A stretch of DNA of 64,000 nucleotides from positions 136,053 to 200,052 of the forward strand of contig JAYRJB010000008.1 of NCBI GenBank assembly GCA_041906505.1. The letters run 5' to 3'. The notes under the pieces are model-generated. The model saw only the letters and a list, made by a program, of their open reading frames with translations, was not told the DNA's origin and ran no database searches. The position numbers and the translations under genes are program-made. Every line of letters starts with the position of its first letter. Positions within the stretch are counted from its first letter, which is position 1. Of this stretch, positions 37,964 to 39,056 are shown piece by piece. Origin of the DNA: Candidatus Saccharimonadales bacterium (lineage in GTDB: Bacteria; Patescibacteriota; Saccharimonadia; Saccharimonadales; 2-12-FULL-41-12).

Positions 37964-38308
37964 TTGTTCTACCGTAAGAGTATGGCAGACAAACGAAAGT
38001 ATAGTGATCGTAGAGAATATTTGATTCGAGCAGTGTCTAAGCGCAGGCGCAATCTCAAAATAAAAGCGGTCAAGCTACTAGGAGGTGTATGTGTACTGTG
38101 CGGATATGATAAGCATTCCGGCGTACTCGATTTTCACCACATAGACCCAAAGCTTAAGTCGTTCGGTCTCGGTAGCGGGGGATTCTCAAGGTCATGGAAG
38201 TCTATAGAAGCAGAATCAAAAAAGTGCGTCCTAGTATGCGCAAATTGTCACCGCGAGATCGAACTTGGACTAACAACTGAGGATTTAACCCAATATTTAC
38301 ATCCCTAG
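37964..38308 (+). CDS. HNH endonuclease domain protein
   Basis: CVLCGY...LDFHHIDP...KCVLVCANCHREIE gives two Cys pairs plus HNH His/Asn-type residues. Confidence 0.7.
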   Translation: MFYRKSMADKRKYSDRREYLIRAVSKRRRNLKIKAVKLLGGVCVLCGYDKHSGVLDFHHIDPKLKSFGLGSGGFSRSWKSIEAESKKCVLVCANCHREIELGLTTEDLTQYLHP

Positions 38309-38339
38309 ATCAAACAGTTAAAATAGCTAGGTGCAATAT

Positions 38340-38642
38340 TCCGGGGTAGCTCAGCGGTAGAGCGGGTGGCTGTCAAAGGCAGCCTGTCTGGGCAACCAGT
38401 CAGTGAAAACAGGGTGAATTGCAGAAACCCTAAGGCAAACACGCTAAGGCAATCTGCAGCCAAGCCAAGCTAGAGGCAACGACGCTTGGAAGGTTCAGAG
38501 ACTAGAAGGTGAGACCTCAGCAATAATCCTTCAAATGAGCGCCCTGCATCCCACGCGGATGATGAAATAGTCCACGCCATTACGAAAGTATGGAGATCGT
38601 GTAACCACTAGGTCGAAGGTTCGAATCCTTTCCCCGGAGCCA
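38340..38642 (+). tRNA. tRNA-Asn (anticodon GUU) interrupted in the anticodon loop by a 228-nt group I-like intron; CCA encoded
   Basis: 5' exon 38340-38373 is TCCGGGG-TA-GCTC-AGCGGTA-GAGC-G-GGTGG-CTGT. 3' exon 38602-38642 is TAA-CCACT-AGGTC-GAAGG-TTCGAAT-CCTTT-CCCCGGA-G-CCA. Spliced product is a 75-nt cloverleaf with loop CUGUUAA. U1-A72 with G73 fits bacterial tRNA-Asn. Confidence 0.8.
38374..38601 (+). ncRNA. group I intron (IC3-like core), no ORF
   Basis: P1: exon GGCUGU (38368-38373) pairs with GCAGCC (38379-38384), with a U.G wobble at the 5' splice site. P2 hairpin is CUGG-GCAA-CCAG (38388-38399). Core GGUUCAGAGACUAGA lies at 38492-38506, with P7 GACUA (38500-38504) pairing to UAGUC (38568-38572). 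The intron ends in G38601. Confidence 0.75.
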
Positions 38643-38753
38643 TAAAGTTAGAATTGAAATAATGGAAGCCAAGTAGCCCCTTTCCACTTTGGGATAATGC
38701 TAATTACACATTAGGGTCAAGGTTTAACTTCGTGGATGCGGTAAAATGGTTAA

Positions 38754-39056
38754 ATGTCATACGAAGTAAGTATCTCCGGTATCTCTGCACTAAGTTGCGA
38801 ATGTAGTCCTTATGAACGTTCAGCTACTGCGCTGGATGAACTAATGGATTTAGTAGAAACAAAAAGAAACGAGGTCGGTTTTAATCAAGAGGATGTTCAT
38901 AGAGTGGTCGCCGTGTATAAATGCGATGGTCCACTTAATGGTGAGTGCATAAAGACGTGTGGACAATTATTGACTGCATCACTCTTTAATGAAGATGGTG
39001 CTCGTCTCTTGAGGGCTAGCTTCATGTCGCAAGTCGTCCTTGAACAGCCGGAGTAA
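38754..39056 (+). CDS. hypothetical protein
   Basis: 100-aa ORF with several Cys. No motif, and coding status is uncertain. Confidence 0.3.
   Translation: MSYEVSISGISALSCECSPYERSATALDELMDLVETKRNEVGFNQEDVHRVVAVYKCDGPLNGECIKTCGQLLTASLFNEDGARLLRASFMSQVVLEQPE

Follow-up and report, generated by a model that had tools for sequence, protein, structure and literature searches.

The DNA analysed here is a 64-kb stretch, called the window below, and all features described lie on its forward strand. The host is a member of Patescibacteria: relatives of the HNH protein encoded in the window carry the name Candidatus Saccharimonadales, and synteny agrees with this. Proteins of the window are 55-61% identical to those of Saccharibacteria MAG loci, which are also syntenic. 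At the locus under study, a tRNA-Asn(GUU) gene is split into a 5' exon (38340-38373) and a 3' exon (38602-38642) by a group I intron (38374-38601), and a free-standing HNH endonuclease gene (37982-38308) lies directly upstream.

The split tRNA-Asn(GUU) gene

The 5' exon is 34 nt long, covers tRNA positions 1-35 and ends in CUGU. The 3' exon is 41 nt long and runs from position 36 to the encoded CCA. When the exons are joined, ARAGORN recognises a 75-nt cloverleaf as tRNA-Asn(gtt), with 7/7 acceptor pairs, U1-A72, G73, an encoded CCA and the anticodon loop CUGUUAA. The ligated exons are identical at 75/75 positions to the uninterrupted tRNA-Asn genes of two Saccharibacteria loci, L083 and L069, and the 34-nt 5' exon accordingly equals the 5' half of both genes. 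Upstream genes for SNase, GT2, a glycosidase and SmpB are common to L083 and the window; of these, L069 has the glycosidase and SmpB. Judged from sequence and gene order, the tRNA-Asn genes of L083 and L069 would be in effect empty-site alleles of the window locus. A first-pass annotation of this DNA had read the gene as a tRNA-Asn(GUU) with a 228-nt group I intron inserted between positions 35 and 36. Every coordinate in it proved right when compared with RF00028, ARAGORN and the 75/75 exon identity, and the 75-nt cloverleaf with U1-A72 and G73, on which it had relied, is borne out by the joined exons and their ARAGORN identification.

Neither ARAGORN with default settings nor the tRNA model of Rfam sees the split gene. 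No second tRNA-Asn was detected by these two programs in the 64-kb window, where tRNA-Gln and tRNA-Ser were the only tRNA genes detected. The window was also searched for a repeated 3' end of the tRNA, the scar that an integrated island would leave, and none was found. A promoter-like sequence, TTTACA-17-TAAAAT (38296-38324), ends 15 nt before the tRNA and agrees with 10/12 consensus positions. Such sites near the tRNA are no commoner than in shuffled sequences, so this is weak evidence for a promoter.

Structure and subgroup of the intron

The insert at 38374-38601 is 228 nt long, contains no ORF and lies between anticodon positions 35 and 36. It is a group I intron. The covariance-model search that the first-pass annotation had proposed as a check was significant: Rfam RF00028 (Intron_gpI) matches 38364-38593 (+) with 71.8 bits (gathering score 50) and an E-value of 2.9e-16, and the match covers the full model, positions 1-253. 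This is far beyond chance. We compared the intron with homologues in a MAFFT alignment of ten sequences (A2), which consists of the window intron, the introns of L001, L062, L085 and L087 (ORF removed) and five introns from Table S3 of PMC13011429.

P1 (38368-38384) is formed by the last six exon nucleotides, GGCUGU (38368-38373), and the internal guide GCAGCC (38379-38384). It places the wobble pair U38373.G38379 at the 5' splice site, and this pair is U.G in 10/10 homologues (alignment columns 9/18). The P1 loop is only 5 nt long (38374-38378), and the window intron therefore has no room for an ORF there. P2 (38385-38402) pairs 38385-38391 with 38396-38402 under a GNRA loop, GCAA (38392-38395), and 7/7 of its pairs change on both sides among the homologues. 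The 5' strand of P3 (38410-38416) and its partner, the 3' strand (38540-38546), are paired in 100% of the alignment cells, with three compensatory pairs. The P4-P5 domain (38420-38458) consists of P4 (38420-38425/38453-38458) and P5 (38428-38430/38448-38450) and has six compensatory pairs. P5 carries CCUAAG, a tetraloop-receptor-like motif read off the sequence, which might serve as a docking receptor. P6 and P6a (38459-38494) follow, P6 as 38459-38461/38492-38494 and P6a as 38465-38471/38483-38489; 7/7 pairs of P6a are compensatory. The core string GAAGGUUCAGAGACUAGA occupies 38489-38506. It includes GACUA (38500-38504), the 5' strand of the guanosine-binding helix P7, which pairs with UAGUC (38568-38572), forms a pseudoknot with P3 and fits the RF00028 consensus. 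Both strands of P7 are invariant in 10/10 homologues. Between P7 and the 3' strand of P3 stands an additional 28-nt hairpin at the P7.1 position (38505-38532), in which 5/5 pairs change on both sides. This hairpin has no counterpart in the RF00028 consensus, and the match to the Rfam model shows a 33-nt insertion there. P8 (38547-38561) has four compensatory pairs, and P9 (38578-38593), with a GAAA loop (38584-38587), has 6/6. The intron ends in the terminal (omega) G at 38601, an invariant column of the alignment (G237 of the window row). A P10 pairing with the 3' exon was looked for and nothing convincing was found. The P1 helix with its splice-site U.G, the P2 hairpin with its GCAA loop, the core string, the UAGUC strand and the terminal G had all been named in the first-pass annotation, and each was seen where it had been placed.

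Covariation supports this fold. RNAalifold, applied to the 10-sequence alignment, recovered the anticodon stem, P1, P2, P3, P4, P5, P6, P6a, P7.1, P8 and P9. When the P7 pseudoknot is included, 95.1% of the cells of this alignment are standard pairs, and 42/64 pairs show compensatory change on both sides. Two controls were made. None of 500 shuffles reached any of the pairing or covariation measures, and pairing fell to 32-43% when the 3' partners were moved by 1-3 columns. P7, the splice-site U.G and the terminal G show no variation among the ten homologues. Since P7 is invariant, it yields covariation evidence neither for nor against the helix. The minimum-energy fold of the window intron alone contains the same helices, although its stability is modest compared with shuffled sequences (z = -1.8).

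The intron resembles the IC3 introns of Azoarcus tRNA-Ile(CAU) and of cyanobacterial and plastid tRNA-Leu(UAA) in several respects. Like them, it is a small ORF-less ribozyme in an anticodon loop, its P1 is built from bases of the anticodon stem and loop, P2 and P9 are capped by GNRA loops, P5 carries the CCUAAG receptor-like motif and the P7 strings are similar. The classical IC3 tRNA introns, however, differ from the window intron in host tRNA and insertion site. The first-pass annotation had compared the core with IC3 introns, and this part of its reading did not hold. The impression of IC3 arises from the core strings GGUUCAGAGACUA and AUAGUCC, which are widely common to group I introns. 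To our knowledge, IC3 introns have no helix between P7 and the 3' strand of P3, which directly follows P7. IC3 membership was rejected for the window intron because the covarying 28-nt hairpin (38505-38532) lies between P7 (38500-38504) and P3' (38540-38546). An extra element between P7 and P3' is the hallmark of subgroup IA in the classification summarised in PMC3984707. The window intron has one covarying hairpin there, at the P7.1 position, and may belong to IA, the class of its published homologues (PMC13011429). In that study, 25/28 introns at position 35/36 were placed in IA, and IC received no tRNA intron of Patescibacteria.

Predicted splicing at 35/36 and the published intron family

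The fold suggests a route by which the tRNA would be produced. A 303-nt precursor would be transcribed from the gene. GGCUGU of the exon and the guide GCAGCC, whose pairing is seen in the sequence and is invariant in the homologues, would then form P1 and present U38373.G38379. The P3-P8 core, with its P3/P7 pseudoknot, is predicted to bind an external guanosine, which would attack after U38373. G38601 would subsequently occupy the same site, and the 3'-OH of U35 would attack before U36. Joining of the exons would give the anticodon loop CUGUUAA and a mature tRNA, the ligated sequence of which exists elsewhere as an uninterrupted gene.

Neither the host tRNA nor the insertion site is new, although the first-pass annotation had regarded tRNA-Asn(GUU) with an insertion at 35/36 as unfamiliar. 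Four interrupted bacterial tRNAs were classically known; the tFind survey of Williams (bioRxiv 2020, 10.1101/2020.01.27.920355) is described as raising the number of cases to 21. Its class 'Asn.4Ug', as quoted in PMC13011429, is mixed up with 'Thr.2Ug'; the name denotes an interruption at site 4 of the anticodon loop of tRNA-Asn, where the base at -1 is U and the one at omega is G, as in the window gene. The survey was purely bioinformatic. Among 95 complete genomes of Patescibacteria, Nakagawa et al. (mSystems 2026, PMC13011429) found 15 genes for tRNA-Asn(GUU) that carry a group I intron at 35/36. For one of these introns, from GCA_016700035.1 (Saccharimonadia), self-splicing in vitro with an exact 35/36 junction was revealed by a gel assay and by sequencing of the ligated product, and a mutant with the terminal G changed to C stalled (PMC13011429). 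The window intron is 74% identical to this tested intron. Precise splicing at 35/36 is an experimental result for this homologue and a prediction for the window intron. In full-length alignment, the window intron has 72-80% identical columns with five published Saccharimonadia introns and 66-75% with published Microgenomatia and Paceibacteria introns. It shares with the published family the host tRNA, the insertion site, the bacterial class and the ORF-less length range of 222-259 nt, together with P1 (CUGU with GCAG), the core strings, the extra hairpin after P7 and a characteristic mis-call by ARAGORN as Thr(UGU) 33/34. The window locus lies on a draft MAG contig and is outside the 15 tRNA-Asn genes of PMC13011429. 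The kind of intron is already described, self-splicing is published for close homologues, and the window intron is one more member of the family.

The mis-call concerns the exact junction. ARAGORN with introns allowed, another check proposed with the first-pass annotation, agreed with it in part: run with -i on 38200-38800, it found the 228-nt intron, but it called the gene tRNA-Thr(tgt), i(33,228), and not tRNA-Asn with an intron at 35/36. The identity elements U1-A72 and G73 agree with what we take to be the features of E. coli tRNA-Asn and not with those of bacterial tRNA-Thr. In the reading as tRNA-Thr(UGU), both boundaries of the intron move by two bases towards the 5' end (33/34), so that exon 1 ends at U38371 and the intron at G38599. 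There too, a U precedes the 5' splice site and the last intron base is G. We regard this reading as very improbable, because U38371 forms a Watson-Crick pair with A38381 while the invariant U.G wobble sits at U38373, because the Asn junction gives the 75/75 match to uninterrupted tRNA-Asn genes, and because ARAGORN and tFind are known to make this two-base error in this intron family, where sequencing of the spliced product decided for Asn 35/36 (PMC13011429). As the split gene is unseen by default and is named tRNA-Thr when introns are allowed, a genome like this one looks, to standard tRNA finders, as if it were without a tRNA-Asn. A mis-called split tRNA-Asn harms completeness scores and genetic-code inferences, a point already made by Nakagawa et al.

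The gene might instead be a decayed pseudogene whose intron has lost the ability to splice, with a second tRNA-Asn gene elsewhere in the genome serving in its place. What leaves space for this is that 64 kb of the genome is in view and that the case for splicing of the window intron is a structural one. On the other hand, all core helices are intact, and the window intron has the family-invariant core strings, U.G pair and terminal G. Compared with working intron-less alleles, the exons are free of substitutions. Moreover, intron-bearing and intron-less copies with the same anticodon rarely coexist in a genome, and the genes tested experimentally were sole copies (PMC13011429). We thus regard decay as very improbable. 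In our view, the locus very probably encodes a functional tRNA-Asn(GUU) of Saccharimonadia (Patescibacteria, CPR) that is split at 35/36 by a 228-nt ORF-less group I intron. With regard to splicing, it offers nothing new beyond one more family member.

The free-standing HNH gene and possible mobility of the intron

Besides the intron, the locus contains the HNH gene (37982-38308), which encodes 108 aa from ATG 37982, is open from TTG 37964 and ends 32 nt before the tRNA. The ORF matches PHROG HNH families with an E-value of 5.7e-28, and its match to Pfam HNH is under the cut-off. Among solved structures, the nearest relative of the protein is a group II intron maturase, through its HNH domain (E 2e-4), and a further protein, P0001, is identical to the window protein over the 108 aa. 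Related HNH genes lie inside tRNA-Asn 35/36 introns of WWE3, UBA1384 and Paceibacteria (PMC13011429), represented here by L087, L119 and L077. These belong to the same family and reside in the same tRNA gene; the intron-encoded relatives are 48-55% identical to the window ORF (E 1e-28 to 1e-34) and have all motif residues. For the intronic ORFs of L087, L119 and L077, the identity is 48-50% over the full length, and the catalytic and zinc-binding residues (CxxC, HH, CxNCH) are invariant between them and the window protein. The position is different. In the intronic relatives, the P1 loop houses the ORF 15-50 nt past the 5' splice site, and the 3' end of the ORF extends into the internal guide sequence, whereas the window HNH gene is outside the tRNA gene, 32 nt before exon 1 of a gene whose intron has a P1 loop of just 5 nt.

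Among the HNH proteins, dN is 0.2-0.5 and synonymous sites are saturated in nearly all pairs; the two ratios that could be computed are 0.05 and 0.11. Judged from these substitution rates, the HNH proteins are under purifying selection. In a neighbour-joining tree of about 100 residues, built without support values, the window protein groups with other free-standing ones, and elsewhere upstream and intronic forms are intermixed. In the clade of the window protein, 7/7 sampled proteins (the window's own, P0002, P0004, P0024, P0040, P0051 and P0105) are encoded directly upstream of a split tRNA-Asn; in L208, a run of N stands between the exons.

We also surveyed the arrangement of HNH gene, intron and tRNA-Asn in 86 HNH-anchored loci, namely 80 from a metagenome scan plus the window, L001, L005, L087, L119 and L077. 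The loci were classified with a loose exon-1 pattern, corrected by Rfam and ARAGORN (by which L134 and L135 were reclassified); a strict rule-based finder left about half of them unclassified. The HNH gene is inside the intron at 63 of the 86 loci. At 13, with L177 counted in, it is upstream of an interrupted tRNA-Asn; among these, the contigs of L179 and L196 end 15-21 nt past CTGT with no TAA following, and L181 has one base after exon 1, so that an intron cannot be seen. At five loci, all from the metagenome scan (L134, L135, L143, L175 and L186), it is directly upstream of an uninterrupted tRNA-Asn. About 5-8 of the 86 are unplaced, and in the rest the HNH gene is in the intron or immediately 5' of tRNA-Asn. 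In a species-level genome scan anchored on the tRNA exon, an HNH gene was found at 0/110 intron-less tRNA-Asn loci (block <=8 kb), most of which are not from Patescibacteria. Among the resolved intron-bearing loci of the same scan, two have the HNH gene inside the intron and three (L062, L071 and L085) have no HNH gene. The syntenic relatives L069 and L083 have neither the HNH gene nor the intron.

In collaborative (trans) homing, a single site is the target both of a free-standing endonuclease and of an intron that has no ORF (PMC3984707; PMC2790892). The window has the layout of such a pair: a free-standing endonuclease gene adjoins a gene with an ORF-less intron and is related to intron-encoded endonucleases. 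A route for the entry of endonuclease genes into introns has also been proposed (PMC3984707; PMC2790892), and the HNH pattern described above fits both the homing model and this route; as in the known systems, some relatives carry the endonuclease within the intron. There are differences. The known collaborative homing systems are those of phages and of protein-coding genes, and cleavage at the insertion site was demonstrated for them, whereas the candidate pair in the window belongs to a cellular tRNA gene, and some of its relatives keep the HNH gene beside an uninterrupted tRNA. We tentatively propose that tRNA-Asn alleles without the intron are targets of the HNH protein in trans, which would let gene and intron spread together. 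The HNH gene, 32 nt upstream of the tRNA, and the intron, itself ORF-less, would then make up a two-part mobile unit, a possibility to which we give somewhat less than an even chance. The proposal draws entirely on homology, position and patterns of presence and absence.

A different explanation survives well, namely that the HNH protein has nothing to do with intron mobility and is either a stand-alone nuclease, of restriction type or other, linked to the tRNA by chance, or a domesticated former homing endonuclease. The five loci in which the gene is next to an uninterrupted tRNA-Asn speak for it. They indicate that the gene is tied to the tRNA-Asn locus and not strictly to the intron, and under trans homing such genomes would need immunity to their own enzyme. 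The intron-bearing loci that have no HNH gene (L062, L071 and L085) likewise speak against trans homing. Relatives are annotated by JGI as 'McrA' or 'HNH restriction endonuclease', and purifying selection fits a host function equally. Against it, the protein is homologous over its full length to ORFs that this intron carries, at this tRNA site, in other loci, all but 5-8 of the 86 loci have the gene in the intron or immediately 5' of tRNA-Asn, and the gene is missing from the syntenic intron-less relatives L069 and L083. We give a role apart from mobility nearly an even chance; a host-domesticated or unrelated function of the HNH protein is about as likely as trans homing.

The free-standing upstream HNH gene may be the only part of the locus that is unreported. 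A literature search on HNH, group I intron and Saccharibacteria returned PMC13011429 alone, and that study scored homing endonuclease genes inside introns only; a free-standing HNH gene upstream goes unmentioned there.

If trans homing is true, the tRNA-Asn locus of Patescibacteria would keep every stage of the proposed birth of mobile group I introns: the HNH gene beside an uninterrupted tRNA, beside a split tRNA as in the window, inside the P1 loop, and the intron without the HNH gene. The locus would thus be a natural series for the entry of endonuclease genes into introns and their exit from them. Counts of intron-internal ORFs alone would then underestimate the mobility of these tRNA introns. 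If the HNH protein mobilises the intron in trans, the published view that most bacterial tRNA introns are without homing endonucleases and rarely move would need to be revisited.

HNH-bearing and ORF-less introns in other tRNA-Asn loci

Locus L207 carries two tRNA exon-1 matches in tandem, about 770 bp apart and ending at 172 and 942; matches to the intron profile come after each of them, at 490-762 and at 936-1187. An HNH ORF (208-501) is present in the first of these introns, and the second appears to be ORF-less. Introns homologous to that of the window, inserted in tRNA-Asn at 35/36, were also found in two MAGs that are not labelled as Patescibacteria: one labelled Bdellovibrionales (L077), with an intronic HNH, and one labelled Elusimicrobia (L062), without HNH. 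These two introns represent either horizontal transfer or mis-binned contigs. In L208, the locus that encodes the closest relative of the window's HNH (P0002, 72% identity), the intron is unreadable because a run of 107 N (2800-2906) lies between tRNA-Asn exons 1 and 2. The tRNA-Asn intron of GCA_016700375.1, as printed in Table S3 of Nakagawa et al. (PMC13011429), contains a long P1-loop insertion, and its final bases read ...aagca, which places A and not G next to the 3' exon. It may be worth re-examining the 3' boundary or the mechanism of this intron.

Sequences flanking tRNA-Asn

Around tRNA-Asn, contigs L002, L004 (4623-6266, minus strand) and L005 (4703-6391, minus strand) were compared with contigs L001, L003 and L006. 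The sequences were identical upstream of the tRNA and diverged immediately downstream, where a large serine recombinase with Resolvase, Recombinase and Zn_ribbon_recom domains is present in part of the contigs and absent from the rest. This variation of the downstream sequence and recombinase behind an identical upstream sequence suggests that a mobile island integrates at the 3' end of tRNA-Asn. A second copy of the tRNA 3' end was sought within the window and none was found.

On the 5' side, a promoter-like TTTACA-17-TAAAAT (window 38296-38324, plus strand) overlaps the final bases of the HNH ORF; the count of promoter-like sites in the region around it is no higher than in shuffles. Because the site stops 15 nt short of the tRNA, the window's tRNA-Asn may be transcribed from its own promoter, without reliance on read-through from the smpB and HNH genes.

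The free-standing HNH gene

The window's free-standing HNH endonuclease gene (37982-38308, plus strand) precedes the split tRNA-Asn at a distance of 32 nt. Its product is a full-length homologue of the HNH ORFs inside tRNA-Asn introns of this family in other Patescibacteria, with 48-50% identity. The 2026 study of Patescibacteria tRNA introns (PMC13011429) makes no mention of a free-standing HNH gene upstream of split tRNA-Asn. In five metagenome loci (L134, L135, L143, L175 and L186), this same free-standing HNH gene (about 2000-2330) is directly followed by an uninterrupted tRNA-Asn(GUU) (about 2315-2416). If the HNH enzyme targets the tRNA-Asn gene, these five genomes would have to spare their own copy in some way.
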